A stretch of DNA of 64,000 bases from an uncultured Peptococcaceae bacterium (GTDB lineage: Bacteria; Bacillota; Dehalobacteriia; UBA4068): positions 3,334 through 67,333 of the forward strand of contig CAYJPF010000003.1 in assembly GCA_964372025.1 (NCBI GenBank), given 5' to 3'. Below the pieces are notes generated by a model that saw only the letters and a program-made list of their open reading frames with translations, was not told where the DNA came from and searched no databases. The translations under genes were made by a program, and so were the position numbers. The first letter of the stretch is position 1. Each line of letters opens with the position of its first letter. Shown here piece by piece: positions 1,824-61,654 of the stretch.

Positions 1824-2061
1824 AACTATGTTTGCTATTCTTAAATACGAAAAGCGCGAATTTATTTATTGTGGTAGGAAAATTATTGATTATGTTTACG
1901 AACCGGGCCCTTATGAAAGCGTTATCCGTTTCGATGAAAACAAAGTGGAATGTTCATGCGTGGAATACGAACCTTTAGCTCTTAACTGGTTGACAGTCAG
2001 AGCAATTCTTGCGCAAATGGAAGAAATGGGGTGGGGGGAAAATGACGATGCCCAGATTTAA
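1807..2061 (+). CDS. hypothetical small protein
   Basis: ORF overlapping previous stop; GAGGAAG RBS. Confidence 0.4.
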   Translation: MKMNAETMFAILKYEKREFIYCGRKIIDYVYEPGPYESVIRFDENKVECSCVEYEPLALNWLTVRAILAQMEEMGWGENDDAQI

Positions 2062-2254
2062 AGTCGGAGATACCGTTCTAATTATTAACGCAGATTTTGA
2101 GCCGGCATGTCCCGGCATGGAAGTATATGTGAATATGATAGGCACAGTGATTGGCAATTCACATAATTATGAGGTAAGTATTCCGTACAAACCAACATGT
2201 TATTGGAACGAAAAGTCCCTCGCTCCGGTCAACGAATATAGAAAGGAAGATTAA
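2042..2254 (+). CDS. small SH3-like paralog-family protein
   Basis: N-terminal FKVGDTVLI and C-terminal W...LAPVNEY; shares signature with 8 other ORFs. Confidence 0.55.
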   Translation: MTMPRFKVGDTVLIINADFEPACPGMEVYVNMIGTVIGNSHNYEVSIPYKPTCYWNEKSLAPVNEYRKED

Positions 2255-2255
2255 T

Positions 2256-2720
2256 ATGAATAAAAGAAGAGAAACAGCCTTTGGCAAAAAAGTGTACCTA
2301 TTGGGCAAAGACCATGAAGGCATTTTATACTGGCTCGAAGAAAGTCAATGGGAATGCGACTGGTACTGGGGCATGGGGTATGTTGAAACTTACACTAATA
2401 ATAAGTATCCACACCTTTCGAGGGACATAAATAGCCACCAGCACTTTGATGGACTATTCTTTAATGGTAGAGTTGATGGGCACACTGCATGGAACAATTT
2501 CTTTGCCGAAAGTGTTTTATCGAGCAAAGAGTTATGGACGCTCATGGAACTCATGAAGACTGCATATACTTTGCAAGAAACTGCGGCAGTGCTCGGCAGA
2601 GGTGGCTCGCATTACACTGCAAATCCATGCGCTGATGTCAAACGTATCAACGAGGTAGTTTTGCCTGCGATATTTGAACAGGTGTATGAGTTTTTATCAC
2701 CAGAGGGAGGATTGAAATGA
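2256..2720 (+). CDS. hypothetical protein (154 aa)
   Basis: ORF with RBS; Trp-rich, no motif. Confidence 0.5.
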   Translation: MNKRRETAFGKKVYLLGKDHEGILYWLEESQWECDWYWGMGYVETYTNNKYPHLSRDINSHQHFDGLFFNGRVDGHTAWNNFFAESVLSSKELWTLMELMKTAYTLQETAAVLGRGGSHYTANPCADVKRINEVVLPAIFEQVYEFLSPEGGLK

Positions 2721-3091
2721 CGATTACTGAATACATAGCATTACACGAAACCGATATCGGCATCGAGGCCTTTGACCCTATAGTAACGGTAATCACCTCA
2801 CCTTCCGGTAGCTTAGAGCTGACACTTAAACAGATTGAATACTTGTCTCGCAAGTTGGATTTTACAATCGAAAAAATAATACTGCACAATAATGGGCACA
2901 GATTAGAGGCGGAATTCAAGTGCCCAAATATTATGTTTTTTGCCTTAACCAATGCTGCCAATAAGCTCGAAGAAGAAATCGAGCGCATGAGCAAAGAAAT
3001 AGATGAAAAAATGACAAAGCGCAAAAAGTTGACAAAAGAACTTGATGAAGAAATCCAAACACTTCAAAAAATAAAGGACGGTCTGAAATGA
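2717..3091 (+). CDS. hypothetical coiled-coil protein
   Basis: ATGA overlap with upstream gene; C-terminal K/E-rich heptad region. Confidence 0.5.
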   Translation: MTITEYIALHETDIGIEAFDPIVTVITSPSGSLELTLKQIEYLSRKLDFTIEKIILHNNGHRLEAEFKCPNIMFFALTNAANKLEEEIERMSKEIDEKMTKRKKLTKELDEEIQTLQKIKDGLK

Positions 3092-3360
3092 ATGAAATGA
3101 GATACGCACGAGACCTATTTACACCGCAGAACCCCATGAGTAGAGTAAAGGAAGTTTTAGAGAAACTGGGCGCTGTCCACGGATGCAAAAGCATCGACTG
3201 TAGGCAGTGCCCTTTTCATAACCTGCACTTAGGTGACAAAGAGCGTTGCCAAACCCAAATGATAGAACATCTACCGGCATTTATTAAGGTGGCGGAAGAC
3301 TGGCTCGAGAAACATAAATGCAGATGTGCGCATTGCACCTGCGGAAAGGAAAAACTATGA
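3088..3360 (+). CDS. Cys-rich zinc-binding small protein
   Basis: CxxC...C...CxxC motifs (CRQCPFH, CRCAHCTC). Confidence 0.5.
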   Translation: MNEMRYARDLFTPQNPMSRVKEVLEKLGAVHGCKSIDCRQCPFHNLHLGDKERCQTQMIEHLPAFIKVAEDWLEKHKCRCAHCTCGKEKL

Positions 3361-3731
3361 GACAATTTAAATGCAATGACTGCGGAGCAGAAATTAAACT
3401 ACCACCCAAAACAACGATGAATTTTTGCATTGAGTGTGGTTCAAATGATGTGCATGGCCTTTTGGGGCTTAGTACAGCCACCCGTTTGAAACGCTTTGAA
3501 AACTACAAAGCTGAACTCAATCAACTTGCTCCGCAGATGGACGAATTAAACACGCAACTAAACGAACTTGAAGTTCAACGCAAAGTCTTGAAGCAACGCT
3601 TTGACTACTTGCTAATGTATTTTGCAAGGCAAGTCGAAAGAGGTTTAATGTCGAAAGACGAACTTACAAAATTAAGGTCTTTGCCTAAAACACGCAAAGC
3701 GAAAGGAGCTAAGCATGAGAAAGAAAATTAA
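3357..3731 (+). CDS. zinc-ribbon plus coiled-coil protein
   Basis: CNDCG...CIECG zinc ribbon at N-terminus followed by helical region. Confidence 0.5.
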   Translation: MRQFKCNDCGAEIKLPPKTTMNFCIECGSNDVHGLLGLSTATRLKRFENYKAELNQLAPQMDELNTQLNELEVQRKVLKQRFDYLLMYFARQVERGLMSKDELTKLRSLPKTRKAKGAKHEKEN

Positions 3732-3738
3732 AAGAGTA

Positions 3739-3879
3739 ATGCCTATTGTAGCGTTCTTTTCGTTCATGTTACTACTGGGCACTTTCGGTTTAATTGAAAA
3801 TGGCGAGATGACGATTAAAGAGGGAGCTCTTAGGATTATTGGGAGCATCTTTGGTTTAGGAGCTTGGGAGGTGATTTGA
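3739..3879 (+). CDS. possible small TM protein (46 aa), not in ORF track
   Basis: MPIVAFFSFMLLLGTFGLIENGEMTIKEGALRIIGSIFGLGAWEVI read directly; fills intergenic gap; weak RBS. Confidence 0.25.
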   Translation: MPIVAFFSFMLLLGTFGLIENGEMTIKEGALRIIGSIFGLGAWEVI

Positions 3880-4088
3880 TGTTCAAGGTAGGCGATGTAG
3901 TGCGTGTCAAAGTCTATGAGCAACGCCCGTCTCGATGGAATAGCGAAGGTGACATGGACAAGTTTATGGGCACAATTCAAACAATCAGCATAGTAAGCGG
4001 TACTGCAATACATCTTCAGGGAGATATTAATTGGATGTGGCGAACAGAAGATTTAATGCCAGCAAATCAATACGAAAGGAGTGATTAA
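3879..4088 (+). CDS. small SH3-like paralog-family protein
   Basis: MFKVGDVVRV...WMWRTEDLMPANQY; GGGAGGTG RBS. Confidence 0.55.
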   Translation: MFKVGDVVRVKVYEQRPSRWNSEGDMDKFMGTIQTISIVSGTAIHLQGDINWMWRTEDLMPANQYERSD

Positions 4089-4331
4089 ATGCGATGGAAA
4101 ATAGGCGACAAAGTTGTCGTAAAGCCGAGAGACCAACTGCGAGGGCTACACATAGTAACACCTATGTATGCGTTTTGCGGAACTGTACAAACAATATACT
4201 CTGTCCCTGCAGAAACACAAATATATTTATTACGACTTGATAGCGCTGACAACCCCGAATGGCATAACGGGCACTGGATTTGGAAGGAGAACGATTTTGA
4301 ACCGCTAAACGAATACAATGGAGGTAAATGA
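4089..4331 (+). CDS. small SH3-like paralog-family protein
   Basis: MRWKIGDKVVV...WIWKENDFEPLNEY. Confidence 0.55.
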   Translation: MRWKIGDKVVVKPRDQLRGLHIVTPMYAFCGTVQTIYSVPAETQIYLLRLDSADNPEWHNGHWIWKENDFEPLNEYNGGK

Positions 4332-4570
4332 TGAATATACAAATAGGCGGCAAGTATAGATTGCGCTACTCAGGAGAAATTTTTTGGAGCGCTGGCATGA
4401 AACATCGGATAGGCAGTATTGTCACGATTCGATGCTATAACCAAAACAGAAGTCGTGGTTTAGATTGCTACAACATCGAAGAGGACTATGGCGAGTTTAA
4501 CGGAAAGGGCTGGACTTACCACAAACAAGATTTTGTACCGATAAACGAATACGACAAAAATAAAAACTAA
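4328..4570 (+). CDS. small SH3-like paralog-family protein
   Basis: IQIGGKYRL...GSIVTI...WTYHKQDFVPINEY. Confidence 0.55.
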   Translation: MMNIQIGGKYRLRYSGEIFWSAGMKHRIGSIVTIRCYNQNRSRGLDCYNIEEDYGEFNGKGWTYHKQDFVPINEYDKNKN

Positions 4571-4591
4571 TACATTTAAGGAGATTTAATT

Positions 4592-6703
4592 ATGGAAATT
4601 GAAATGAAAACAAACGAAACCTCTACAAAAGCTCGCTTTAAAGAAGGCGACAGAGTAAGAGTAACCCGACCCATGGCGATGACAGTGAACTGGGTTGAGC
4701 CTATGGCAAGACATATGAACGAAGTGTTTACCGTAAAAGAAGTCGTTTCTGACGGATATTTCTTTGTAGAACCGCAACACGGTCACCACGAGCGAATTAA
4801 GATGACCGGCAACTGGTGGTGGGCAGATGATTGCTTAGAACTTGAAAATGCAGTAGTACAAGCACCCGAAGAACCTAAGTTGCCGATAGAGAAACCGACT
4901 GAACCTCATAAGTATGCCACGGAAAACGCACAGTTTCTATCCGATTATCCGACTCGTGTAGACCAAATCAGATACTACACTCAAAAAGCTGTTGAGCACT
5001 TCGACCACAAACGTATCGAAGATGATTACAGCTACTCCGGCGTTGAGACAAATGTCGAAGCGTGGTATGACAGCAAACTGCACCTATTTGAGGCGTTCCG
5101 AAATCACCCGCTCTGGAACGAAGAGGCAAAAGCGGTTATAACGAGCGTAGCTATCGAGTACAAACCGCGTTATGTTGACTTTGATAATTACTTTAGGAGA
5201 CTTGTTGAATATAATGCCCAAAGCTCAAACTCGCCGCTGATGCAAAATACCGCTTATCGAGAAGGTGCGGCTAATTGCCGGTCAATCCTTACTCGTTACG
5301 TTAAATGTGGCGTAACAACAATCACTAAAGACTTTATAGACGGAGATGCAAGCACTCCAATCATGAACGGTATGGGCGTGGAGCTTAAAGCCGGACAGAA
5401 AGTCACGAGAGCAATAAACGCATGGCTTAAAAAGCTCGGAGCACACGGCACTCCGTTTGCAAACTCGGAAAACCATTTTATGAAGTGTCACCACGGCGTT
5501 CCGATGGATTTTCACGGACATACCGTAAAAGCTAATTATGTTTATGGAATATATGACAGATACCCGTTTGTTTCTGGCGACGAAGTAAACCGCATGGGCA
5601 TTGAAAAACGTTTACAAATGTATGTTAAAGTCGGCAGCAGTTGGAGCGCTCGAGAAGTTTCCGAAGAAGTTCGCGAAGGCGTTAGAGCCATTCACTACAA
5701 CAAAGTGTTTGCTCAAATGTGCGATGCTATGGTGGCTAAGACAGTCACGCAACCCTACGTTATATCGTTTAACTTCATGGACTTCCTAACTGTATCTAAC
5801 GGGAACTCGTGGTCTTCTTGTCACGCTCTCGATCGTAGCTATCGTGCAGGCGTTCTCTCGTATGCCAACGACGAAAGTTCTGCGGTAACTTATGTGCTCA
5901 GCAAGGAATACACCGGCAACGAATGGTGGGCTGAGCCGAAGGTTAATCGTCAGATGTACCACTTTGACCAAAACGGCGATTGTTTCCTTCAGAGCAGACT
6001 ATACCCGAACGACAACGCAGATGATATTTACGAACCTCTAAGGCACATTGTACAAAAGGCACAATCCGTTGCCTATGCTCGTGCAAATGCGTGGCAAATC
6101 TCTCGTAAGAGTAGAGAGTGCATTTATACTCACGACGATGCTCTGGGCTACAAAGATTACGAAGAGGGCTATAACTCGGTATTCTCCAGCCGTAAAGGTG
6201 CAGATAGAGCAAAAATGCGCATTACTATCGGTGCTCAAGGCTATTGTATCTACAGTGGCGATGACTTGCAGGATAGCGACTCTCTCAACTGCAACAGCGG
6301 CATGACGAAGTGCTATAATTGCGGTAACCGTATTGACGAAGACGATGCAATATACATTAACGACGAATATTACTGCACCGACTGCCTTAGCTACTGCGAC
6401 CACTGTAATGAGTATGTGTTGCCCGGCGACATCGTAGAAGATAGCAGTATCTGTGAAACATGCTATCGCGATGATTATTTCACTTGCGACCACTGCGGAA
6501 GTATTTGGCATAACGAAGATAGTTGCTTTGTTGACGGTGAGGATACTTATGTATGCCCAGACTGTTTGACGGAGTATTACTTCCAATGCGAAGAGTGTAG
6601 CAGGGTGTACACTAACGATGACAGACACGATAGATTGACACACATGTGCGAAAGCTGTGGTGATGAAGCTACAGAAAACGCTGACGAAGAAGGAGCGGAA
6701 TAA
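4592..6703 (+). CDS. large multidomain protein (703 aa)
   Basis: N-terminal SH3-like paralog domain (FKEGDRVRV...WWWADDCLEL), central unknown domain, C-terminal array of about six CxxC zinc-ribbon repeats. Confidence 0.6.
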   Translation: MEIEMKTNETSTKARFKEGDRVRVTRPMAMTVNWVEPMARHMNEVFTVKEVVSDGYFFVEPQHGHHERIKMTGNWWWADDCLELENAVVQAPEEPKLPIEKPTEPHKYATENAQFLSDYPTRVDQIRYYTQKAVEHFDHKRIEDDYSYSGVETNVEAWYDSKLHLFEAFRNHPLWNEEAKAVITSVAIEYKPRYVDFDNYFRRLVEYNAQSSNSPLMQNTAYREGAANCRSILTRYVKCGVTTITKDFIDGDASTPIMNGMGVELKAGQKVTRAINAWLKKLGAHGTPFANSENHFMKCHHGVPMDFHGHTVKANYVYGIYDRYPFVSGDEVNRMGIEKRLQMYVKVGSSWSAREVSEEVREGVRAIHYNKVFAQMCDAMVAKTVTQPYVISFNFMDFLTVSNGNSWSSCHALDRSYRAGVLSYANDESSAVTYVLSKEYTGNEWWAEPKVNRQMYHFDQNGDCFLQSRLYPNDNADDIYEPLRHIVQKAQSVAYARANAWQISRKSRECIYTHDDALGYKDYEEGYNSVFSSRKGADRAKMRITIGAQGYCIYSGDDLQDSDSLNCNSGMTKCYNCGNRIDEDDAIYINDEYYCTDCLSYCDHCNEYVLPGDIVEDSSICETCYRDDYFTCDHCGSIWHNEDSCFVDGEDTYVCPDCLTEYYFQCEECSRVYTNDDRHDRLTHMCESCGDEATENADEEGAE

Positions 6704-6704
6704 C

Positions 6705-7889
6705 ATGACATTTTTTGATATAGTTAAACTCAAACAACATGAACTCAAGCAACAGCTACACGCTGAACTGCGCAAGCATTACGACCAAAGTGACATCAAG
6801 TTTTGCCGAGGATTTCTATACGCTGAAGGCGATATCCCGGTCATGGTAGTCGCTCACCTCGACACAGTACACCGCAAGCCTGTAGAGACTGTATGTGTTA
6901 GCGACGATGGGCGATACGTGATGTCTCCACAAGGCATAGGCGGCGATGACAGGTGTGGGGTATACATTATACTTCAACTTCTCGAACGCTATGGCATTAA
7001 GCCGTATGTACTCTTTACAGAGGACGAAGAAGTGGGCGGTATAGGTGCAAGGATGTTCACCAAGAGCACATTCATGCCAGACTTGAAATATATTATCGAG
7101 TTCGACAGGCGTGGTGATAATGATGCTGTGTTCTATGACTGCGACAATCCTGCGTTTACCGCTTTCGTTGAGACATTCGGTTTCCGTGAAGAGTACGGTT
7201 CGTTCTCGGACATATCTTATATTGCTCCACATTTGAAAGCAGCAGCAGTCAATTTATCTTCGGGCTATTTCAACGAGCACACATTACATGAGATGGTAGA
7301 TTTGGTTGCGGTAGAGGACATCATTAAGCGTGGTGCAAAACTCGTAATGGCACACGATACGGTATCTGCTTATGAGTACATCGAACATGTCTATGTGCCC
7401 AAGCATTACTCATACCGCAATCAGCATAACTTCACCTCCACTTACGCTAAAGGATATGCTGGCGGAGGACTCTATCCTCATGACGAAGAGGAAGACGACA
7501 AATACGAATTTTATTTTCAAGATGATGCACCGAAAAAAACATTACTCGAAACTGAAGTAAGCTATGAGATGGAACTGCGAATTCTATGCGACGATGAATA
7601 CTATTTAAAAGATAGTGAAGGGCATTTCTACATGCCGGATTACTCACATATGGGTTGCGTAGACTCTCGCGGTAGGTTTTATGTAGCGATGGATGTAGGC
7701 GCTACGGACTTTAGCGAAGAATACCCTGTCTTTATCGGCACAGAGTTTACGGTAGTCAGTGAAAGCTTGGGTACGATTATGGCGGTAGAAGCAAACGAAG
7801 ATAATATCTTTGGCGAAATCTGGAGTGAAGCCGACTATGAATGGGAGTTCGGCATACCTTTGGATATGGCTGTAGAGCTGATTGCGTAG
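6705..7889 (+). CDS. M20/M42-type metallopeptidase-like domain protein with C-terminal extension
   Basis: Motifs VMVVAHLDTVH, GGDDRCGV, FTEDEEVGGIGA match the His-x-Asp / Asp / Glu-Glu metal ligands of MH-clan aminopeptidases. Confidence 0.55.
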   Translation: MTFFDIVKLKQHELKQQLHAELRKHYDQSDIKFCRGFLYAEGDIPVMVVAHLDTVHRKPVETVCVSDDGRYVMSPQGIGGDDRCGVYIILQLLERYGIKPYVLFTEDEEVGGIGARMFTKSTFMPDLKYIIEFDRRGDNDAVFYDCDNPAFTAFVETFGFREEYGSFSDISYIAPHLKAAAVNLSSGYFNEHTLHEMVDLVAVEDIIKRGAKLVMAHDTVSAYEYIEHVYVPKHYSYRNQHNFTSTYAKGYAGGGLYPHDEEEDDKYEFYFQDDAPKKTLLETEVSYEMELRILCDDEYYLKDSEGHFYMPDYSHMGCVDSRGRFYVAMDVGATDFSEEYPVFIGTEFTVVSESLGTIMAVEANEDNIFGEIWSEADYEWEFGIPLDMAVELIA

Positions 7890-7897
7890 GTGGTATT

Positions 7898-8095
7898 ATG
7901 TTTGCAAAGGGAGATGTCGTCAGAATTAACCCGGAATTGAAAGGCATAGGGGTGGTGTCAGCGATGTGTCGTTGGTGCGGCTCAGTGCAAGTTATCATGG
8001 AGGTGTCAGGGCAACACGCAACTTTGGTTAAAACACCGTGCAGATGGGATGTATGCGATTTAAGCCCTATAAACGCTTATAAAGGAGACGATTAA
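7898..8095 (+). CDS. small SH3-like paralog-family protein
   Basis: MFAKGDVVRI...GSVQVI...DLSPINAY. Confidence 0.55.
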   Translation: MFAKGDVVRINPELKGIGVVSAMCRWCGSVQVIMEVSGQHATLVKTPCRWDVCDLSPINAYKGDD

Positions 8096-8353
8096 ATGGA
8101 ACTTAAAGTTGGCGAGAAATATATACTAAAACAAAGTTTCGCTCGTAATTGGAACGATTTGATGAAAGCAAGAGATGGCTCGATTGTTACAATTAGAAAA
8201 ATATATTCATCCGGACATTCGCTAAAACCTGTATCTATAGAAGAAGACCAAAAAGAACGTGGGAGCAGTTTTGACGGCAACGGAGGTTGGTTCTATGCCA
8301 AAGAGGACTTCGCTCCCCTAAACCAGTATGACAGAGGTGACGATGATGTTTAA
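8096..8353 (+). CDS. small SH3-like paralog-family protein
   Basis: LKVGEKYIL...GSIVTI...WFYAKEDFAPLNQY. Confidence 0.55.
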   Translation: MELKVGEKYILKQSFARNWNDLMKARDGSIVTIRKIYSSGHSLKPVSIEEDQKERGSSFDGNGGWFYAKEDFAPLNQYDRGDDDV

Positions 8354-8750
8354 AATAGACGATATGGTATACATTAATCCAACCTTTTTATCCCCCAGCG
8401 CATCTCCGGGAAGCTATGCACGACTACTTCATCAACAACAAGCACAACGCATAACTCATTTTACGGATATGCAAGCCCCAGAACGCATGTTTAGTCTTAG
8501 CGAAAGCTTAGCGAAATGGGAAGCCTCTTGTCTTGTGCCGGCGAATATTTACAAACCGGCATTTCACGACTCTACCGAAGGAAGAGCAACCTTAAGGCAG
8601 GCCATGGGCTTGGACGAAGAATACAGGCAAGCACTTGAGCAGATACGTCAAGCAACGCTTTCTATAAATCCTGCTTGGATTGCGAGAACAAGGCGATGGG
8701 TTGAAGAACAAGAGGCTATAGCTTGGAGATTGGAGGGTGACGATGCTTAA
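8343..8750 (+). CDS. divergent SH3-like paralog-family protein with C-terminal extension
   Basis: MMFKIDDMVYI ... LVPANIY motif then about 60 extra residues. Confidence 0.45.
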   Translation: MMFKIDDMVYINPTFLSPSASPGSYARLLHQQQAQRITHFTDMQAPERMFSLSESLAKWEASCLVPANIYKPAFHDSTEGRATLRQAMGLDEEYRQALEQIRQATLSINPAWIARTRRWVEEQEAIAWRLEGDDA

Positions 8751-8982
8751 AGTTGGAGATAAAGTTATAATCGTAGACGCACCGGGAGGAGTAATTATCT
8801 TCCCCGAAATGAAACAATATGTGGGAAAATTAGCAACTGTAGACCACATTGAACGCACTGGTTTTTGTACTCGTGAAACCGGTTTTTTCATATGGTGCTT
8901 TGAAAATGCGATACCAGCGAATATATATCCTAAAAAGGAGGTAGATTACGACGACGACACATGGGAAATAGTACCATTCTAA
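8743..8982 (+). CDS. small SH3-like paralog-family protein
   Basis: MLKVGDKVIIV...GKLATV...FENAIPANIY. Confidence 0.55.
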   Translation: MLKVGDKVIIVDAPGGVIIFPEMKQYVGKLATVDHIERTGFCTRETGFFIWCFENAIPANIYPKKEVDYDDDTWEIVPF

Positions 8983-8997
8983 TTTTGGAGGAAAAAA

Positions 8998-9228
8998 ATG
9001 AACAAGAACAGACGAAAAATACTTGACCGGATAATTAACACTCTCACGGAAGTGAAAGATGACCTTGAGCTTTGCAAGGATGAAGAGCAAGATTGCTTAG
9101 ACAACATGCCCGAGAACCTGCAAGGGTCAAGCAGATACGAAGACGGTGAACAAGCAGTTGCACACATGGAAGACGCGATATATGAACTGGAAAACGCTTT
9201 GGAACATATCGAGGAAGCAAGGCATTGA
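8998..9228 (+). CDS. small acidic helical protein
   Basis: GGAGG RBS; D/E-rich helical sequence. Confidence 0.45.
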   Translation: MNKNRRKILDRIINTLTEVKDDLELCKDEEQDCLDNMPENLQGSSRYEDGEQAVAHMEDAIYELENALEHIEEARH

Positions 9229-9253
9229 CGGTTATCTGCACCTATGATATAAT
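9225..9253 (+). promoter_or_regulatory. sigma70-like promoter TTGACG-17-TATAAT with extended -10 TG
   Basis: TTGACG at 9225-9230, TGaTATAAT ending 9253, 17-nt spacer; followed by GGAGGTG RBS. Confidence 0.5.
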
Positions 9254-9271
9254 TTTTGCGGAGGTGCTATT

Positions 9272-9331
9272 ATGGCAGAGTTGTACTTAATTGTTATGAT
9301 TGTTGGCATAATAGTAGCCGCCGCATCATGA
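9272..9331 (+). CDS. 19-aa hydrophobic mini-ORF (MAELYLIVMIVGIIVAAAS)
   Basis: Strong GGAGGTG 6 nt upstream of ATG 9272; lies between promoter and integrase start. Confidence 0.3.
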   Translation: MAELYLIVMIVGIIVAAAS

Positions 9332-9344
9332 GAAAGGCACACAA

Positions 9345-10232
9345 ATGGACAATTTAAAATGTATAATTAAACAATTTAGCGAATATCAAAAGCGAAGAAA
9401 TCTAAGTTCAACAACCATTACACAGTACGCCACACTGCTCAACAAGTTTGCAGAAAGCGTAGGCGATGTCAGTGTGAGTGATTTAACCAAGCATGATGCC
9501 AACGACTTCCTTGACGGATTTTCCACACAGTCAGACGCTACGAGAGCGCAAAGGGCATGTATTATGAGAGCCTTCTTTCAGTGGGCACACGATGAAGAAC
9601 TGACAGAGCGAAACCTTGGAGCATCCATTATCATCCCAAAGCAAGAGAAGAAAGAAATCGACGTGATGACGGAAGTAAATGCCATGGAAGTTCTCTCGAA
9701 AGCGTACGATACTTACAAGAAAGGTGGGGTTTATGGTCTAAGAGATTACCTAATAGTCCTGTTGTTCCTAAATACAGGCATAAGACGACAGGAACTCCTA
9801 ACAATCACAGCAGAAGATGTAGACGAACCGGGCTGCAGGGTTCTTATTCATGGCAAGGGTAGCAAGCAACGCTTTGTCTATATCGACGCAAACACGGTTG
9901 AGCTAATACGAACTTATTGCAAATTAAACTCAATCGAAAATGGAGCGATTATATTTAACATATCGGTGCGCTCCGTAAATCGCATAATAAATAAGTACAT
10001 GGAAATGGCTGACTGCAAGAAACATGGACGGTCAGCGCATGGTTTGCGCAAAAGATTTGCCACTTCAGCTTATAAAGAAACTTTGGATATTTATTCAGTT
10101 TCTAAAGCTTTAGGGCATAGCACGATAGTCACCTCTGAGAGATATGTACAAGTAGCTCAGGACGAAATAAGAAAGGCATTTAATGCTGTAAAATTTAAAA
10201 TTGAAAGTGAGAATAATAATGAGAACAATTAG
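9345..10232 (+). CDS. int: tyrosine recombinase / phage integrase
   Basis: C-terminal catalytic signature HGLRKRFATSAY...LGHSTIVTSERYVQV (R..HxxR..Y); N-terminal SAM-like core-binding region. Confidence 0.85.
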   Translation: MDNLKCIIKQFSEYQKRRNLSSTTITQYATLLNKFAESVGDVSVSDLTKHDANDFLDGFSTQSDATRAQRACIMRAFFQWAHDEELTERNLGASIIIPKQEKKEIDVMTEVNAMEVLSKAYDTYKKGGVYGLRDYLIVLLFLNTGIRRQELLTITAEDVDEPGCRVLIHGKGSKQRFVYIDANTVELIRTYCKLNSIENGAIIFNISVRSVNRIINKYMEMADCKKHGRSAHGLRKRFATSAYKETLDIYSVSKALGHSTIVTSERYVQVAQDEIRKAFNAVKFKIESENNNENN

Positions 10233-10590
10233 AAGAGGCGAAGTTTACTGGTGCGATTTTTCGGCACCGATGCAACAAACATATGTACAAAAGTACAGCA
10301 GACCGGTCATCATAATGCAGAACGATTTAGGCAATGCAAATAGTGCGACAACGATTGTAGTTCCGCTAACCACGCAACTAAAAACTAAGCTATACCCTAC
10401 GCAGTTACCCTTCTATATGGGGCGTAAGCTTCAAATAGCACGTACAGAACAGATACAGACGATAGACAAAACAATCCTCGGTGATTACATCGACACGCTC
10501 AGCGAGGACATAATCGAGGAAGTAGAGCGCAAGATACACATAGCTATCGGGGCTGTCGGATACGATGTAGAGGAGGATGACGAGAACTAA
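10219..10590 (+). CDS. mazF: EndoA/MazF (PemK-family) endoribonuclease toxin homolog
   Basis: RGEVYWCDFS...RPVIIMQNDLGNANSATTIVVPLTTQ...EQIQTIDK aligns closely with B. subtilis EndoA/NdoA along its length; acidic C-terminal tail. Confidence 0.85.
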   Translation: MRTIRRGEVYWCDFSAPMQQTYVQKYSRPVIIMQNDLGNANSATTIVVPLTTQLKTKLYPTQLPFYMGRKLQIARTEQIQTIDKTILGDYIDTLSEDIIEEVERKIHIAIGAVGYDVEEDDEN

Positions 10591-20904: not shown

Positions 20905-21612
20905 ATGAAATACGGAAAAATAATAAGCGGTGAACTGGTGCTCGTAGACCCTACCAAGGCAGAACTAACCGAAGAGGGTATCTATACCAGAGTACCTAAG
21001 ACCGCAGAGGAGCTTGACGGAGCTAAACCCGTAGTCTATGGGGAATACCCCTCGGCTACTATATATCAGACAGTGGACAGGGTTTATAATGATGGTGCAG
21101 AAAATATTGCCGTTGACTACACTGTAACTGACAAAACAGCAGAGGAAGTTGCTGAAATAGATAGAAGTATTTGGGCTTCAGACGCAATCCAAATATTTGT
21201 TTCCGCTGAACTTGGTGAAGAAGTGCCCGAAGAGCAGTACGAAGTAGCTGTAGAAGAAATCATTAAGCAACAACGAAATAAGCTTACAAGCCCGCCTGTG
21301 CAGGGTGCAGCGTACAGCGAGACCAAGAACTACATCACCGGTGATACTATGCTCTTTACAGACGGCAATACTTACATGTCGTTGAAACACAATAGGGGCA
21401 TGTCACCTATAGACTATCCCGAAAGATGGCTGAACACTACGGTGCAGGGCAATCCTAATTGGGAAGATGACCCGATAGATTTCTACTACCTTGAGGGAGA
21501 TATTCGTGACTACGAAGGTCTAACTTATACCTGTAAAAATCCGCATAGCAAGAATGAGTTAAACTACCCGACATCTCAGAATGGTAAGCAAAACTGGAGA
21601 GTGCAGGTTTAA
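20905..21612 (+). CDS. protein with C-terminal tandem CBM5/12-like carbohydrate-binding repeats
   Basis: AYSETKNYITGDTMLFTDGNTYM and DFYYLEGDIRDYEGLTYTCKNPHSKNEL; paralogous to C-terminus of minus-strand ORF 34724-35206. Confidence 0.5.
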   Translation: MKYGKIISGELVLVDPTKAELTEEGIYTRVPKTAEELDGAKPVVYGEYPSATIYQTVDRVYNDGAENIAVDYTVTDKTAEEVAEIDRSIWASDAIQIFVSAELGEEVPEEQYEVAVEEIIKQQRNKLTSPPVQGAAYSETKNYITGDTMLFTDGNTYMSLKHNRGMSPIDYPERWLNTTVQGNPNWEDDPIDFYYLEGDIRDYEGLTYTCKNPHSKNELNYPTSQNGKQNWRVQV

Positions 21613-21613
21613 C

Positions 21614-22015
21614 ATGTTAAAAAAGAAAAAGAAACTGCCTATAATAGACAGTTTATTTAAAGAGTATACTGAAGCTGAGCTTAATGACATCCTTAAAGAC
21701 CTAAGCAATGAAGACAAGGCTAAGTTCTTAGGTATGGTTCAGTCAAACGCAATCAGTAATGGTATGCTTAGAGCTTACCCAGAGGTTATCCTTGCAGGAC
21801 AAGAGAGCGCTTTCATTTTACTCTACGAACGTTTTGTCAAACCTATGGTAGACGCAGACGAACGAATTAAGCGTGGCCTGACGGTAGACGAATTAAGCGA
21901 ACAGCTTATAACTCTTATAACCGTTAGAGCAGAAGAAGGCGTAGAGCGCAGAGAAAAGATGAAGGAGTACATCAAGAAACGCTCCGAAGGCAAGACAGTC
22001 GAAGATGTAATATAG
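21614..22015 (+). CDS. hypothetical helical protein
   Basis: ATG at 21614; last plus-strand gene before convergent terminator. Confidence 0.45.
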   Translation: MLKKKKKLPIIDSLFKEYTEAELNDILKDLSNEDKAKFLGMVQSNAISNGMLRAYPEVILAGQESAFILLYERFVKPMVDADERIKRGLTVDELSEQLITLITVRAEEGVERREKMKEYIKKRSEGKTVEDVI

Positions 22016-22019
22016 CAAA

Positions 22020-22046
22020 AGGAGAGGATAAATCCTCTCCTTTTTT
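22020..22046. terminator. bidirectional rho-independent terminator
   Basis: GGAGAGGAT-aa-ATCCTCTCC perfect 9-bp hairpin followed by TTTTTT on plus and preceded by AAAAG. Confidence 0.6.
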
Positions 22047-22667
22047 CTATGGCGTGTCATTCAAGTCAGCTACTATCCAGTTTAAATAACTTGCGTACAC
22101 TGTGCCACCTACAAATACGCTTGGAGAGCGACTTCCCGAACCCGACAAGGCACTTATAGCCGTCCTTGCTTGATTGTACATGGCAGCAGTGAAGTCATTG
22201 CCCGAGTACGCTGTGCTAAAGCTATAGTTGCTAAGCCCTTGGTAAGCTCTAAACTCATTGATACGAGAAGTGAACAAGTTCCATTCGTAAGCCGATAGAT
22301 TAAAATTGTTGCCCGAAACCTTAGCGGTGACCCATGAAAAATCATCAGGTCTTGGCTCGTAAGGTTCTTCGTCAGCCCTAAACTCTTGAGCACCTATCCA
22401 GTCAAACGAAAGTTCGTCATCAGAAGCAGAAGCAACATTTATTGTGTACCATTCATCTGGGTAAGGGAAAGTTATGTTTTGCTCAAACGATAAAGTAGAA
22501 GAAGATACAGTCGTAATACGGTCACGTATAGTTTCGCCTGTGCCATCACTTTCTCTACCTGTTCTTAAGAAAATGCGATACTTGGTAAAATTACTGTCTG
22601 TTGTAACTTCAATCCTAACGCTGTTATGGTCAAAACTTAGTATGTCGAATGAAGCAGTTGTAGCCAT
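22047..22667 (-). CDS. structural protein, FN3/Ig-like (206 aa)
   Basis: last gene of tail operon; AGGTGG RBS; S/T-rich beta composition. Confidence 0.5.
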   Translation of the reverse strand: MATTASFDILSFDHNSVRIEVTTDSNFTKYRIFLRTGRESDGTGETIRDRITTVSSSTLSFEQNITFPYPDEWYTINVASASDDELSFDWIGAQEFRADEEPYEPRPDDFSWVTAKVSGNNFNLSAYEWNLFTSRINEFRAYQGLSNYSFSTAYSGNDFTAAMYNQARTAISALSGSGSRSPSVFVGGTVYASYLNWIVADLNDTP

Positions 22668-56344: not shown

Positions 56345-58354
56345 TTAGAACGGTAACGTTGGGTCTTCGTCGATATATCCAGCCACTTCCACTAACGAGC
56401 GTTTATCCCAACCAAAAACAATATTTTCTGCGTTAAAGTTCAAAAATCGCTTACTTTCTACTTCAAAAAACAAAGGGACGCAAACGTCCTGAATACCAAT
56501 ATCTCTATTCTTCATTATTTCAATAAAGTTAGAGCACTTCTTCAAATGCTCGTGTTCAATAGTGCCAAAAACAGTAGCCCCTAAATTTTCAAAATCACGA
56601 TTGACGCGATGCACCATTAAAACATTGTCTGCAGCATTGGTAATATCTGAAGTTCCGCTGATATCTTCTTTGCGAGGAACGCCCTGAGATTTTTTAGGGT
56701 GACAAATGAAATGAATGTGTATGTTGTATTTCTTAGCCATTTCTGAAAGTTTCAAAACAATAGCAGTTTGGTTTTCATACTTGTCTCTTCCAATATCACT
56801 CGTATCGAAACTCATTAAATTGTCCACAATCATCACGTCACATGGGTGTTTTGCAAAATCCTGTTCAAAACGCTTCAGCACTTCCCCCACCTTCAAACCA
56901 TAAGAATTGAGATAAACTCTTAATCTGTCTCCAATCCAGTCGTCAATTTTAAGCGAAGCAACGTCGCTTGCCTTGTACCTCACCCCGCTTGCGTCTAATG
57001 CAACGTTGTGCTTTCCAGCTGCCTGCAAATGCAGCCATTCTTTCACTCTGAAATCCCGAAGCTCTCCACTAAACATGGCAACAGAAAAACCCTTATCTAT
57101 GCAATTAAGAGCTAAATGAGATAAAACACTTGATTTCCCCGAACCGTTTATACCCGACCAAACCGAAAATTCACCCTTGTTGAAACCTAACATAGCCTTA
57201 TCTAATGCAATAAAACCAGAAGGCATAGACACAAGCTTGCTCCTATCAGGAGCCGTTATCTCGTGCAGACTCCTAAACGCTTCTTCAGGCAAGTCGTCTT
57301 CTTTCATAATCTTATCAAGAGAATGTGTTGCAGTTCGAGGTGATAAAGAATATCGGTCTTCGAAAGTCCGCTCATATGCTGTCGGCTCAAACAACCGGCG
57401 AACATCCTTCCATGATTTATCAGCGCAGCTGTCGTGAAAACAATGATAACACAACACTCCGTCGTTGCGCACTAATATTGCACTATCTGGAGATTTGTGA
57501 CTGGGGTCAAACACACATTCGTCTAAAACAAATTTAGTTCCGTATGCAAAATTGCCTTCGCTTTTTACGGAAATTCCATGCTTCGCAATAAAATCTCTAA
57601 CGTCAAACTCTTTTCCGCTATATTTGCGTTGGTATTCAGATTGAGGCTTAGGGTCGGGATACTTATTTGCTAACTTACTAAGTATACCTGTAGGTGTCGC
57701 AACAATAGAATGAGGGATGTGCAAAAGAGCACTCTCTCTATGAGGCCTCTCCTTGGTGTTTGCACCTTTGCAAGCCGTTGTTCCATAAAGTTTAGTAATT
57801 CGACTGGGATTGAAAACAGAAGTGTCTACCTTTACATCCTCTGTGCTAAAAAACATATCTAAAGTCTTCAGCACTTTCTTTGCAAGCTCGTCGTTTTCTT
57901 TTTCTAAACCCATAAAAACGCTATACAGTAAATGAAAGCCATTGCCACTGTCTGCTATAACTGGAGGAGTAAAACCTAAGTTATGAAGATAGTTGTACAT
58001 TTTCTGAGTAACTTCTTTAGCCTTAAGTTTTTCTTCGTCAGTAGCCGAAACGCCAGTTGCTCTAACCGGGTCAGCGTCTATCAACAGCCATCTACGAGAA
58101 ACAATGTCCTTGTCAGTAGTAGCGGTTTTAACAGGAATAAGTTTTTCTTGCTGTTCTCTAGAATAACAAGCGTCGTTTATTTTATTGAAAACAAAATACC
58201 ACGTTTTATCTTGATGTTTTTCTAAGCAACGAAATAAATTGTCTTTATTCCTAAAATACCCACTCAGCGGAGTTCTGCCAAAACATCTTACTTCTATAAG
58301 CGAGTCTTCGGGTTTGAAAAGGTCTATCGTTCTTGCAATCATTTCAAAATTCAC
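56345..58354 (-). CDS. bifunctional AEP-type primase / DnaB-like (SF4) helicase
   Basis: LLIDADP and SGNGFHLLY (AEP motifs), CYHCFHDSC zinc finger, Walker A GINGSGKSS and IHFICHPKK in C-terminal RecA-like domain. Confidence 0.8.
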   Translation of the reverse strand: MNFEMIARTIDLFKPEDSLIEVRCFGRTPLSGYFRNKDNLFRCLEKHQDKTWYFVFNKINDACYSREQQEKLIPVKTATTDKDIVSRRWLLIDADPVRATGVSATDEEKLKAKEVTQKMYNYLHNLGFTPPVIADSGNGFHLLYSVFMGLEKENDELAKKVLKTLDMFFSTEDVKVDTSVFNPSRITKLYGTTACKGANTKERPHRESALLHIPHSIVATPTGILSKLANKYPDPKPQSEYQRKYSGKEFDVRDFIAKHGISVKSEGNFAYGTKFVLDECVFDPSHKSPDSAILVRNDGVLCYHCFHDSCADKSWKDVRRLFEPTAYERTFEDRYSLSPRTATHSLDKIMKEDDLPEEAFRSLHEITAPDRSKLVSMPSGFIALDKAMLGFNKGEFSVWSGINGSGKSSVLSHLALNCIDKGFSVAMFSGELRDFRVKEWLHLQAAGKHNVALDASGVRYKASDVASLKIDDWIGDRLRVYLNSYGLKVGEVLKRFEQDFAKHPCDVMIVDNLMSFDTSDIGRDKYENQTAIVLKLSEMAKKYNIHIHFICHPKKSQGVPRKEDISGTSDITNAADNVLMVHRVNRDFENLGATVFGTIEHEHLKKCSNFIEIMKNRDIGIQDVCVPLFFEVESKRFLNFNAENIVFGWDKRSLVEVAGYIDEDPTLPF

Positions 58355-60665: not shown

Positions 60666-61061
60666 TTAAAAAGGCAAAGAAAAATCAGTGGCTACCTCTG
60701 CGCTTACGTGAGGGATGTCTTGAGCAGGAGCTTGTTGTCTGGGCCTATTAAGACCAAAATCCAGCTCGTCTATTTGGATAGACCAAGAGATGCGTTTGTT
60801 GCCATCTTTATCTTCCCATTTGTTGCTTTCCATGCGCCCCATTATCATGACTTCAGAGCCTTTGTCTAAATGCTTATTGCAAACTTCGGCTAATCTAGCC
60901 CAAGCCGTACAGTCAAAATAATCCGTAACTTTGTCTTGTCCTTTTGGAGCAAAAGTTCTTTGCACCGCTACAGTGAAATTGGTAAAAGAAGTGCCGGTTT
61001 TAGTTTGTCTTAGTTCAGGCTGGCGAACCACTGCCCCGTGAATGATTGTTTTATTTAACAT
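60666..61061 (-). CDS. ssb: single-stranded DNA-binding protein
   Basis: OB-fold pattern GAVVRQPELRQTKTGTSFTNFTVAV...WARLAEVCNKHLDKGSEVMIMGRMESNKWEDKDGNKR; C-terminal DFSLPF tail. Confidence 0.75.
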   Translation of the reverse strand: MLNKTIIHGAVVRQPELRQTKTGTSFTNFTVAVQRTFAPKGQDKVTDYFDCTAWARLAEVCNKHLDKGSEVMIMGRMESNKWEDKDGNKRISWSIQIDELDFGLNRPRQQAPAQDIPHVSAEVATDFSLPF

Positions 61062-61063
61062 GA

Positions 61064-61654
61064 TTATTTCTCCTCTTCTTTCTTTTCGTCTAAGTAAGTT
61101 GCTACCAAGTCAGCACAATGCAACAGCATACCGAGCGGGTACTTTTCCCAAGCTCCGCTGAGTGCATAAGAACCGCCTTTAACCCTGTCATCAAAGCCAC
61201 CCATATGCCAGTTGATAGCAAGAGCCTCTTCACGAGTTAGCCTGATAAAGCTGGAAATTATATAGACGCTTCCTTCGCCGTGACCGTAGCAGAGCGAGTC
61301 TTCTACCGTGTAGTACGGGACTTGAACCCACTCGCCGTTTTGCTTTACATTTCGGGTATCTTGCTTATAGAAGTTGACTTTGCAGAGGTCGTGTAGAAGT
61401 GACACAACTGCTATTGTTTCCCCACCCAATTGCAGGTCTAAAAGCTTGTTTAGATGCAATAGTCGGTGGTAAACATTGATACTGTGCTGGGCTAAACCAC
61501 CTTCATAAGAACCGTGGTATTTGGTGCTTGCCGGAGCGGTAAAAAAGTCGCTACTGTCCAGCCAAGCTAACAGCTTATCCGCTCCCTCTCTCTTGATATT
61601 TGCCGTAAAAATAGCAGCAAATTCTTTTCTCAAATCGCCGGTTGGACTACTCAT
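61064..61654 (-). CDS. HD-domain phosphohydrolase
   Basis: H..NV...L...LLHDLCK (HD motif). Confidence 0.65.
   Translation of the reverse strand: MSSPTGDLRKEFAAIFTANIKREGADKLLAWLDSSDFFTAPASTKYHGSYEGGLAQHSINVYHRLLHLNKLLDLQLGGETIAVVSLLHDLCKVNFYKQDTRNVKQNGEWVQVPYYTVEDSLCYGHGEGSVYIISSFIRLTREEALAINWHMGGFDDRVKGGSYALSGAWEKYPLGMLLHCADLVATYLDEKKEEEK

Follow-up and report, generated by a model that had tools for sequence, protein, structure and literature searches.

Introduction

Mind bomb 1 (MIB1) is a eukaryotic RING ligase that carries tandem copies of the Mind bomb SH3 repeat domain (Mib repeat; Pfam SH3_15, PF18346; REP structures 4tse and 4xi6). The REP of MIB1 binds a short peptide epitope (C-box) of JAG1/Delta (PMC11887331), and a role in substrate recognition is attributed to SH3_15 domains (PMC11701565). 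Many phages also have genes for small SH3-like barrels without a known function. In phage T4, the early LSm-like small barrels GoF, MotB.1, and Frd.2 have very dissimilar sequences and were recognised by structure prediction (PMC12152347).

Here, we analysed a window of 64,000 nucleotides (the whole stretch of DNA under study) that encodes nine small SH3-like domains, m1–m9. Sequence comparison gave good support for regarding them as diverged relatives of the Mib repeat, each a predicted beta-barrel of approximately 65–85 residues that mostly stands alone, and as a lineage-specific expansion in an uncultivated gut-type tailed phage.

Results

All nine ORFs that the original prediction had grouped as a paralogous family were present on the + strand at the positions it had assigned to them. 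Their homology was assessed by a leave-one-out test, in which each copy in turn was scored with an HMM of the other eight and compared with 500 shuffles of itself. The resulting scores (in bits) are included in the following list.

2042..2254, + strand: m1, stand-alone SH3_15-like protein, 70 aa, solitary; tail PVNEY; pI 4.9; 24.7 bits (shuffle maximum 6.7); Shine-Dalgarno-like GGGGTGGGGGG 5' of the ATG
3879..4088, + strand: m2, 69 aa, opens array A; tail PANQY; 54.2 bits
4089..4331, + strand: m3, 80 aa, begins right at the end of the m2 stop; tail PLNEY; 45.8 bits; Shine-Dalgarno-like AAAGGAGTGAT within the final codons of m2
4328..4570, + strand: m4, 80 aa, ATGA overlap with m3; tail PINEY; pI 8.95; 30.8 bits
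4592..4891, + strand: m9, N-terminal SH3_15-like domain of the 703-aa protein (fusion), approximately residues 14–92 (by HMM, residues 18–96 of the stop-to-stop ORF); tail degenerated to LENAV; 23.7 bits
4592..6703, + strand: 703-aa protein; besides the SH3_15-like domain it has a helical region, four zinc-ribbon units (CxxC...CxxC), and a central domain that is conserved
6657..7889, + strand: M28/M42-like metallopeptidase, 410 aa, between the arrays; forms a conserved gene pair with the 703-aa protein
7898..8095, + strand: m5, 65 aa, opens array B 8 nt past the peptidase stop; tail PINAY; 24.8 bits
8096..8353, + strand: m6, 85 aa, begins right at the end of the m5 stop; tail PLNQY; 26.6 bits; Shine-Dalgarno-like AAAGGAG within the final codons of m5
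8343..8750, + strand: m7, 135 aa, SH3_15-like residues 1–75, tail PANIY, and a C-terminal extension of approximately 60 aa; 14.3 bits (shuffle maximum 7.0; 33.6 bits with the wider family HMM)
8743..8982, + strand: m8, 79 aa; tail PANIY followed by the acidic end DYDDDTWEIVPF; 23.7 bits

Every copy scored above its own shuffles (14.3–54.2 bits versus maxima of 4.3–10.4 bits across the copies), and even m7, the weakest member, was recognised through its first ~75 of 135 residues. A multiple alignment recovered the three predicted motifs, namely N-terminal F-K-V-G-D-x-V, central G-x-x-x-T-I, and C-terminal W-x-W...D-L-x-P-x-N-x-Y, in collinear order in 9/9 copies. The family thus withstood both the alignment and the shuffled-sequence control that the original prediction had named as its refuting test, and the homology of the nine ORFs to one another is confirmed at the sequence level. 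No tenth copy was found in the window when the nine-copy HMM was compared with all its six-frame ORFs of 40 aa or more (677 ORFs; next best E=0.24).

Pairwise identity among the copies was 21–48% with a median of 31%, the closest pair being m4 and m6 (48%). The barrel core was kept (F2, G5, D6, V8, M26, G31, T35, I36, W54, L59, and P61; G5 in 8/9), and two variable loops, one linking strand 1 to the helix and the other strand 3 to strand 4, differed in sequence and, by 0–16 residues, in length. By score, most copies were nearer to consensus-like sequences from outside the window than to one another; hence, they need not stem from a single recent radiation within this genome. The domain pI was acidic to neutral (4.6–6.5) in 8/9 copies, m4 being the sole basic one.

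Apart from m1, the copies lie in one tight block in the order m2-m3-m4-[m9::703 aa]-peptidase-m5-m6-m7-m8, where two packed arrays flank the zinc-ribbon protein and peptidase pair. The predicted back-to-back arrangement was seen throughout, as stops and starts abut or overlap: 0 nt between the m2 stop and the m3 ATG, the ATGA overlap of m3 and m4, and a 21-nt gap containing AAGGAG before m9 on one side; 8 nt from the peptidase stop to m5, 0 nt between m5 and m6, and overlaps of 11 nt (m6/m7) and 8 nt (m7/m8) on the other. A Shine-Dalgarno-like sequence was located 5' of the chosen ATG in every copy. A simple duplication of a four-gene block was considered for the arrays and rejected: only the pair (m3, m4)/(m5, m6) corresponded, and m3/m5 weakly.

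Direct scans of the nine copies against Pfam, PHROGs, NCBIfam, and PADLOC yielded nothing significant; the PHROGs matches were weak (E>=7e-4) and to families of unknown function. None of the copies reached the SH3_15 gathering threshold of 24 bits (best, m2 with 12.3 bits, E=0.21; the other eight were unmatched), so the link to the Mib repeat runs via intermediate sequences. The closest stand-alone homologs were also under this threshold, and tandem homologs of the prokaryotic/phage type scored 21–65 bits, some of them over it. Searched against a library of 1.8 billion, a profile built from the window alone matched (E<=1e-3) 1,158 cluster representatives, mostly proteins with 2–17 repeats. Its best non-self match was a 17-repeat fish protein (Pfam SH3_15 at 7e-71, in ten called stretches), and 22 of 42 sampled matches hit SH3_15. 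When the nine copies were combined with 46 database domains, the profile matched the MIB1 REP with E=1.5e-12 (4tse_A) and 1.7e-11 (4xi6_A), and both REP repeats of 4tse aligned in full length over profile positions 2–65. With the 55-sequence alignment as query, a word-indexed search gave just 3 proteins.

The SH3/KOW-like barrel of the original prediction held for its SH3 half, since the predicted fold was an SH3-like five-stranded barrel nearest to the Mib repeat, but not for KOW (PF00467, the motif of ribosomal L24 and NusG/Spt5). The Pfam models for KOW, S1, LSm, and Tudor matched none of the nine copies, whose charge is acidic to neutral in 8/9. A cell-wall-binding SH3b assignment was rejected: Pfam SH3_3 and SH3_5 were unmatched, and the genes lie outside the lysis and structural modules.

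The copies share with the MIB1 REP the collinear pattern F-x-V-G-D-x-V ... W ... M ... G-K-V-G ... W-x-(Y/W). Unlike the tandem repeats accompanied by RING and ankyrin domains in Mind bomb 1, they form eight single-domain phage proteins and one single N-terminal domain, the window contains no ubiquitin machinery, and the copies bear a private P-x-N-x-Y tail. Metagenomic prokaryotic and phage SH3_15-like proteins (for example, P0007, P0116, P0086, and P0019; loci L001, L006, L008, and L013) were direct relatives (E 1e-9 to 1e-17) with the same consensus, FKVGDKV..(R)P..WN..G.M..(W)MG..VTI....IEED...W.W...DF.P. Their genes lie in non-structural phage regions; many of the domains occur in tandem or at the N-terminus of 210–330-aa proteins, and none has a described function. 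L001 likewise contains three adjacent overlapping genes. The P-x-N-x-Y tail is lacking in these relatives, and L001 has a different private tail. The T4 set, with which no sequence relationship was expected, likewise comprises several small beta-barrels among the early genes of one phage. It differs in barrel family, in its link to RNA, and in having three members, whereas the window copies are mostly acidic and related to a peptide-binding domain.

The tail P-x-N-x-[YFW] was found in 8/9 window copies and 0/204 outside domains (2/212 in a relaxed test), and is essentially private to this locus. Its N is retained in 9/9 copies and its P and Y in 8/9, the fused m9 alone having lost them. Its pLDDT was approximately 63 in the predicted model. 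This conservation suggests one feature common to the copies, for example a barrel cap or a shared docking peptide; common descent with a structural role alone could also explain it.

Each of 17 other loci carries 1–3 family genes, and one was found in a related prophage-like contig from Lachnospiraceae. Although this sample is small, nine copies in one phage are an outlier, in line with the predicted unusual expansion; the domain in general is not rare, as the ~1,158 cluster representatives indicate. Megablast of positions 2000–9300 and tblastn of a consensus-like member and the three-repeat P0019 gave no match among the INPHARED phages, so that the copy-number comparison is confined to the loci above. 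In IMG/VR, a subfamily alignment detected three loci, and the family alignment, being too degenerate, and the 703-aa protein detected none. The + strand block of the window also encodes RecT, Bro-N/ANT, GIY-YIG, integrase, and PemK, and placement of the copies in an early region is plausible. Pfam was uninformative on the C-terminal partners of N-terminal-domain homologs in L010, L012, L015–L018, and L021.

The fusion of one copy to a large zinc-ribbon protein was also borne out: besides m9, the 703-aa protein contains four Cys4 units of zinc-ribbon/LIM-like type and a central domain with an invariant SNGNSWSSCH motif. Homologs of approximately 525 aa lack the fused SH3_15-like domain. The adjacent peptidase matched Pfam Peptidase_M42 at 23.5 bits (cut-off 23.2), just missed Peptidase_M28 (21.1 bits; cut-off 21.3), and matched PHROG 34186 at 8.8e-46 and the peptidase PHROG 4191 at 5e-33; PADLOC matched neither protein. 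The gene pair recurred in L002, L004, L005, and L013. In L004, the 522-aa homolog is immediately preceded by a gene whose product begins with an SH3-like domain (92.6% to the family by hhalign), and in L013 a family copy lies 2 kb downstream of the pair. In L002 and L005, no family member was found by HMM, and an 82-aa gene upstream aligned to the family over the first strand only. A 639-aa protein beside the L006 homolog was considered as a relative of the 703-aa protein and rejected (hhalign probability 1.9%).

Discussion

We propose that the copies are probably small protein-binding modules, each presenting a protein- or peptide-binding surface on a constant barrel core. Since the two loop regions differ in sequence and length, the copies would be expected to bind different partners, and the P-x-N-x-Y tail may be the feature that they have in common. 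The m9 fusion, together with an SH3-like gene that immediately precedes the homolog in one or more related phages, points to the zinc-ribbon protein and peptidase pair as the most likely shared partner; the tie to the 703-aa protein is slender, as the HMM found no family member in L002 and L005. Overall, we give a probability of about 55% to a lineage-specific expansion of Mib-repeat-like binders with this pair as their likely shared partner.

The most serious competitor, possible yet clearly less probable, also treats the copies as binders and parts from our proposal only on whether they share a partner. Each copy would independently block a different host protein, in anti-defence or host takeover, and the arrays would be tandem duplications in an accessory region. 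It fits the accessory/early-type surroundings on the same strand (RecT, Bro-N/ANT, integrase, and PemK), the other loci that carry family members without the 703-aa/peptidase pair, and the SSB-tip-like end in m8 alone, which hints at copy-specific targets. The three-gene L001 array adjoins RadC and DUF5688, and Tad4, a weak Apyc1-like match, and a DNA methylase are encoded a few genes away from the L006 homolog, so that the context for anti-defence comes from loci other than the window. However, no known defence or anti-defence family was matched in PADLOC-DB 2.0 or PHROGs, and independent inhibition leaves unexplained why every free copy retains the private tail and the fused copy alone has lost it, and why the arrays flank a conserved pair. 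The predicted host-takeover or anti-defence proteins with a different target each were thus not borne out by PADLOC, PHROGs, NCBIfam, or Pfam, and such a role is only suggested by context. Regulation of the phage's own proteins is a further candidate role.

Action on RNA, ssDNA, or the ribosome in the manner of KOW, Tudor, or LSm domains, for instance on early transcript stability or translation, is unlikely. The T4 barrels are linked to RNA stability (PMC12152347) and m4 is basic, but the acidic to neutral character of 8/9 domains argues for protein rather than nucleic-acid binding, Pfam models of those families were unmatched, and the top sequence and fold matches were to a peptide-binding domain. 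Somewhat less likely still is that the arrays descend from or replace a multi-repeat SH3_15 protein and assemble non-covalently as beads on a string, possibly head to tail via P-x-N-x-Y. Most outside homologs have 2–17 repeats per chain (three in one 230-aa protein of the phage-borne L008), and abutting and overlapping genes would suit coupled translation in equimolar amounts. The Mib-type domains that have been characterised bind short peptides, and in the N-box, to which the related MZM (Mib-Herc2) domain binds, a central Asn is pivotal. Yet each gene has its own start and Shine-Dalgarno sequence, the copies are only 21–48% identical, and the Y-x-x-(G/S)-D ends, an initial hint of a vestigial F-K-V-G-D start of the next repeat, proved to be the next gene's Shine-Dalgarno sequence read as codons. 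Neutral decay of functionless duplicates is very improbable. High divergence and the barely recognisable m7 would suit it, but all nine ORFs are intact and keep core residues, Shine-Dalgarno sequences, compact overlaps, and a conserved tail motif at a median identity of 31%, which argues for functional genes.

A more elaborate form of the shared-partner reading, which we consider unlikely, would make the copies interchangeable target-recognition subunits, analogous to the substrate receptors of ubiquitin ligases. Docked via the tail on a 703-aa/peptidase effector, each would bring a different host protein; m9 would have lost a tail that it no longer needed, and m8 would mimic the C-terminal tip of SSB to reach host SSB-interacting enzymes.

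The link to a characterised peptide-binding domain gives these anonymous small phage genes a concrete candidate activity, the binding of short peptide epitopes. Previous descriptions of the Mib-repeat SH3 domain come from eukaryotic E3 ligases; its prokaryotic/phage branch is large, for the most part unannotated, and lies mostly under the Pfam threshold. With their constant core, constant private tail, and variable loops, the nine copies form a natural panel for the retargeting of a minimal barrel. If they serve as adaptors for the zinc-ribbon protein and peptidase, they would belong to a new phage effector system recurring in gut phage metagenomes; if they are only independent small binders, the result is a useful annotation without surprise.

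Three of the 677 ORFs end in PF, namely m8, the phage SSB, and the replicative helicase; among the copies, the SSB-tip-like end is confined to m8.

Nine copies of an SH3-like domain

The original prediction described nine ORFs with shared motifs. All were present as described: eight small stand-alone genes (m1–m8) and the N-terminal domain of a 703-aa protein (m9). Alignment of the nine copies confirmed that the motifs are collinear, with a conserved core of F2, K3, G5, D6, V8, M26, G31, T35, I36, W54, D58, L59, and P61. In a leave-one-out analysis, the profile of the other eight scored each copy at 14.3–54.2 bits, while 500 shuffled versions of each copy, the control proposed for this family, reached at most 4.3–10.4 bits; m7 was the weakest member. 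No tenth copy was detected among the 677 six-frame ORFs of the window with the nine-copy profile. Pairwise identity between the copies was 21–48% (median 31%). At the level of sequence, the nine copies are old, real paralogs and not chance motifs.

Eight of the copies form a compact run in the order m2, m3, m4, the 703-aa protein (m9 at its N-terminus), a 410-aa peptidase, m5, m6, m7, and m8. The first and last copies are as follows:

2042–2254: m1, solitary, outside the compact run
8743–8982: m8, ending in DYDDDTWEIVPF

The junctions of the nine family genes and the peptidase/m5 junction ranged from an 11-nt overlap to a 21-nt gap, and these overlapping or near-abutting junctions bore out the proposed back-to-back arrays. 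A larger overlap was found at one junction only, that of the 703-aa ORF with the peptidase at its listed GTG start. A Shine-Dalgarno-like sequence was located 5–10 nt upstream of the originally assigned ATG in every copy. At five sites (4060–4090, 4315–4331, 8070–8096, 8325–8345, and 8725–8745), the Shine-Dalgarno sequence of the next gene falls within the final codons of its predecessor, where the upstream proteins end in ERSD, NGGK, KGDD, RGDD, and EGDD, respectively. The G/S-D ends of m2, m3, m5, m6, and m7 arise because the ribosome-binding site of the next gene is read as codons, and these C-terminal ends are thus constrained by it. The idea that they are remnants of where another repeat once began was rejected for the same reason. 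A consensus scan, which yields pattern matches only, detected no strong + strand terminator within 3879–8982. The closest pair was m4/m6; m3/m5 were mutual best matches by phmmer among the nine, and m2/m3 scored slightly higher by local alignment. The m4/m6 and m3/m5 pairing hints at a duplication of a two-gene unit.

Relationship to the Mib repeat

No copy was named by Pfam, PHROGs, NCBIfam, or PADLOC; the single hint was a sub-threshold match of m2 (E = 0.21) to SH3_15, the Pfam family of the Mib repeat in the E3 ligase Mind bomb. The nine-copy profile was then searched against 1.84 billion cluster representatives and matched 1,158 proteins at E ≤ 1e-3 and 74 at E ≤ 1e-10, with 2–17 domain copies per chain in most of the 1,158. 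The top outside match was a fish protein of 1,319 aa, in which Pfam SH3_15 was assigned at 7e-71 over ten stretches, and 22 of 42 sampled proteins from this search had an SH3_15 match. Furthermore, a profile of the nine copies and 46 outside domains matched full-length both repeats of the REP domain of MIB1, for which a structure has been solved (E = 1.5e-12). This match and the SH3_15 calls identify the family, by profile comparison, as a diverged branch of the Mib repeat; the SH3-like fold had been assigned correctly. The stand-alone relatives nearest to the family, and the majority of tandem relatives of prokaryotic or phage type, scored just below the Pfam cut-off and for this reason are unannotated. 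Our literature search found no paper that mentions the Mib-repeat/SH3_15 domain in phages. The family can now be given an identity, as Mib-repeat relatives that stand alone, have expanded in number, and bear a tail.

Copy number at other loci

We compared the window with 17 other family loci (metagenomes, IMG/VR, and a single MAG); for seven of these, approximately 10 kb of sequence flanked the gene on one side or both. A single family gene was present at each locus, except L010 (two genes), L001 (three adjacent, overlapping genes), and L008 (one gene with three repeats). Within this small sample, nine is clearly the highest number, in agreement with the predicted unusual expansion. Uncharacterised small SH3-like barrels occur widely among phages, and some genomes encode several; Citrobacter phage CVT22, for instance, appeared three times among the best 40 BFVD matches. 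In seven loci (L010, L012, L015, L016, L017, L018, and L021), the domain forms the N-terminal ~70 residues of 210–330-aa proteins, the C-terminal parts of which gave no informative Pfam match (borderline DUF6273 in L012). This suggests that the barrel is often an N-terminal module on other domains.

C-terminal tail

The motif P-x-N-x-(Y/F/W) directly follows the last strand in eight of the nine copies. N63 is present in all nine and Y65 in eight; P and Y were lost only in the fused copy m9, which has the tail LENAV. The motif was found in none of 204 outside domains in a strict test and in two of 212 when only N and an aromatic residue were required. Most window copies scored higher against consensus-like outside sequences than against one another (m2: 57.5 bits outside vs 19.6 inside). 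The tail is thus conserved more strongly than the remainder of the protein, which argues for a selected role, putatively as a structural cap or as a docking peptide common to the copies.

On the metagenomic scaffold L001 (2269–3000), the three overlapping stand-alone copies lie beside RadC and DUF5688 genes and have their own C-terminal tail, DSIE(Y/M)L(L/I)EKEK, instead of P-x-N-x-Y.

The end of m8, an acidic run followed by hydrophobic-Pro-Phe, resembles the C-terminal tip of bacterial SSB. Among the 677 six-frame ORFs, just three end in PF, where chance would give about one; besides m8, these are:

60669–61109, − strand: phage SSB (PDB search, E = 1e-24), ending in ATDFSLPF
56345–58354, − strand: DnaB-like primase/helicase, ending in DEDPTLPF

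m8 may mimic the SSB tip or compete for its binding site.

The 703-aa protein and the peptidase

The predicted fusion of one copy to a large zinc-ribbon protein was found as m9 of the 703-aa protein, which contains four Cys4 units with weak LIM-like similarity. A fold search gave no convincing structural match. Its 38 homologs, mostly ~525 aa and aligning to about 80% of its length, have neither the N-terminal barrel nor a Pfam domain. An invariant SNGNSWSSCH motif marks the conserved central domain of the large protein (residues ~370–535 of the 703). An M28/M42-like peptidase always lies 3′ of the protein or its homolog (window 4592–7889; L002, L004, L005, and L013), and no PADLOC match was obtained for the pair. 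The ~525-aa zinc-ribbon protein and the peptidase look like an uncharacterised two-gene phage module. L013, a Lachnospiraceae contig, has this pair and a single family copy 2 kb downstream; no family copy was found by HMM in three metagenomic phages with the same synteny.

The large-protein homolog in L004 is immediately preceded by a gene whose product opens with an SH3-like domain (92.6% to the family by hhalign). The corresponding position in L002 and L005 is taken by an 82-aa K-Y-K-V-G-D-R-V protein, which aligns to the first strand of the family only. Fusion here and adjacency elsewhere provide a modest Rosetta-stone argument that the small barrel works with the 703-aa protein.

Possible function of the copies

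Characterised relatives of the domain bind short peptide epitopes of target proteins (PMC11701565, PMC11887331). Eight of the nine domains are acidic to neutral, and the core is fixed, with the strand 1–helix and strand 3–4 loops varying in sequence and, by 0–16 residues, in length. Taken together, these features favour protein- or peptide-binding modules. Nucleic-acid binding by the copies, their non-covalent assembly into a split repeat scaffold, and neutral decay are each less supported. As binding modules, the copies would each have a different specificity, and one partner could be common to them through the tail. The neighbours of homologs elsewhere (Tad4, a weak Apyc1-like match, a methylase, RadC, and DUF5688) are compatible with a role in phage-host conflict.

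P0015, an 802-aa bacterial homolog from a metagenome, has an N-terminal caspase-like Peptidase_C14/CHAT domain and C-terminal SH3_15-like repeats. This protease-plus-binder architecture, typical of conflict systems, would fit a recognition module for an effector.

Phage setting and host

By gene content, the window is a tailed phage: PHROGs matches on the − strand identified tape measure protein, large terminase, portal, and major head protein, and one on the + strand an integrase. The block of + strand genes between 1 and ~21.6 kb houses the SH3 family genes and also codes for RecT, GIY-YIG, Bro-N/ANT, an MBL-fold hydrolase, DUF7448, and a PemK/MazF-like toxin; it has the look of a non-structural region of early or accessory type. 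No near-identical DNA was found among 50,697 deposited phage records. Since an uncultured Lachnospiraceae MAG contig has homologs of three genes from this block, we infer that the host is likely a gut clostridium.

Downstream of array B (m5–m8), the following features were located:

9225–9253: promoter-like site before the integrase, extended −10, 11/12 (consensus scan, pattern match only)
9345–10232, + strand: integrase (PHROGs)
10201–10590, + strand: PemK/MazF-like toxin ORF (Pfam, 1.2e-22), overlapping the integrase end

A PemK-then-integrase neighbourhood was also present downstream of the zinc-ribbon/peptidase pair in L002 and L005, and DUF7448 in L002 only. At ~21600–22050, gene orientation flips from + to −, coinciding with a sign change in GC skew; genes for tail, head, packaging, and replication occupy the − strand half.
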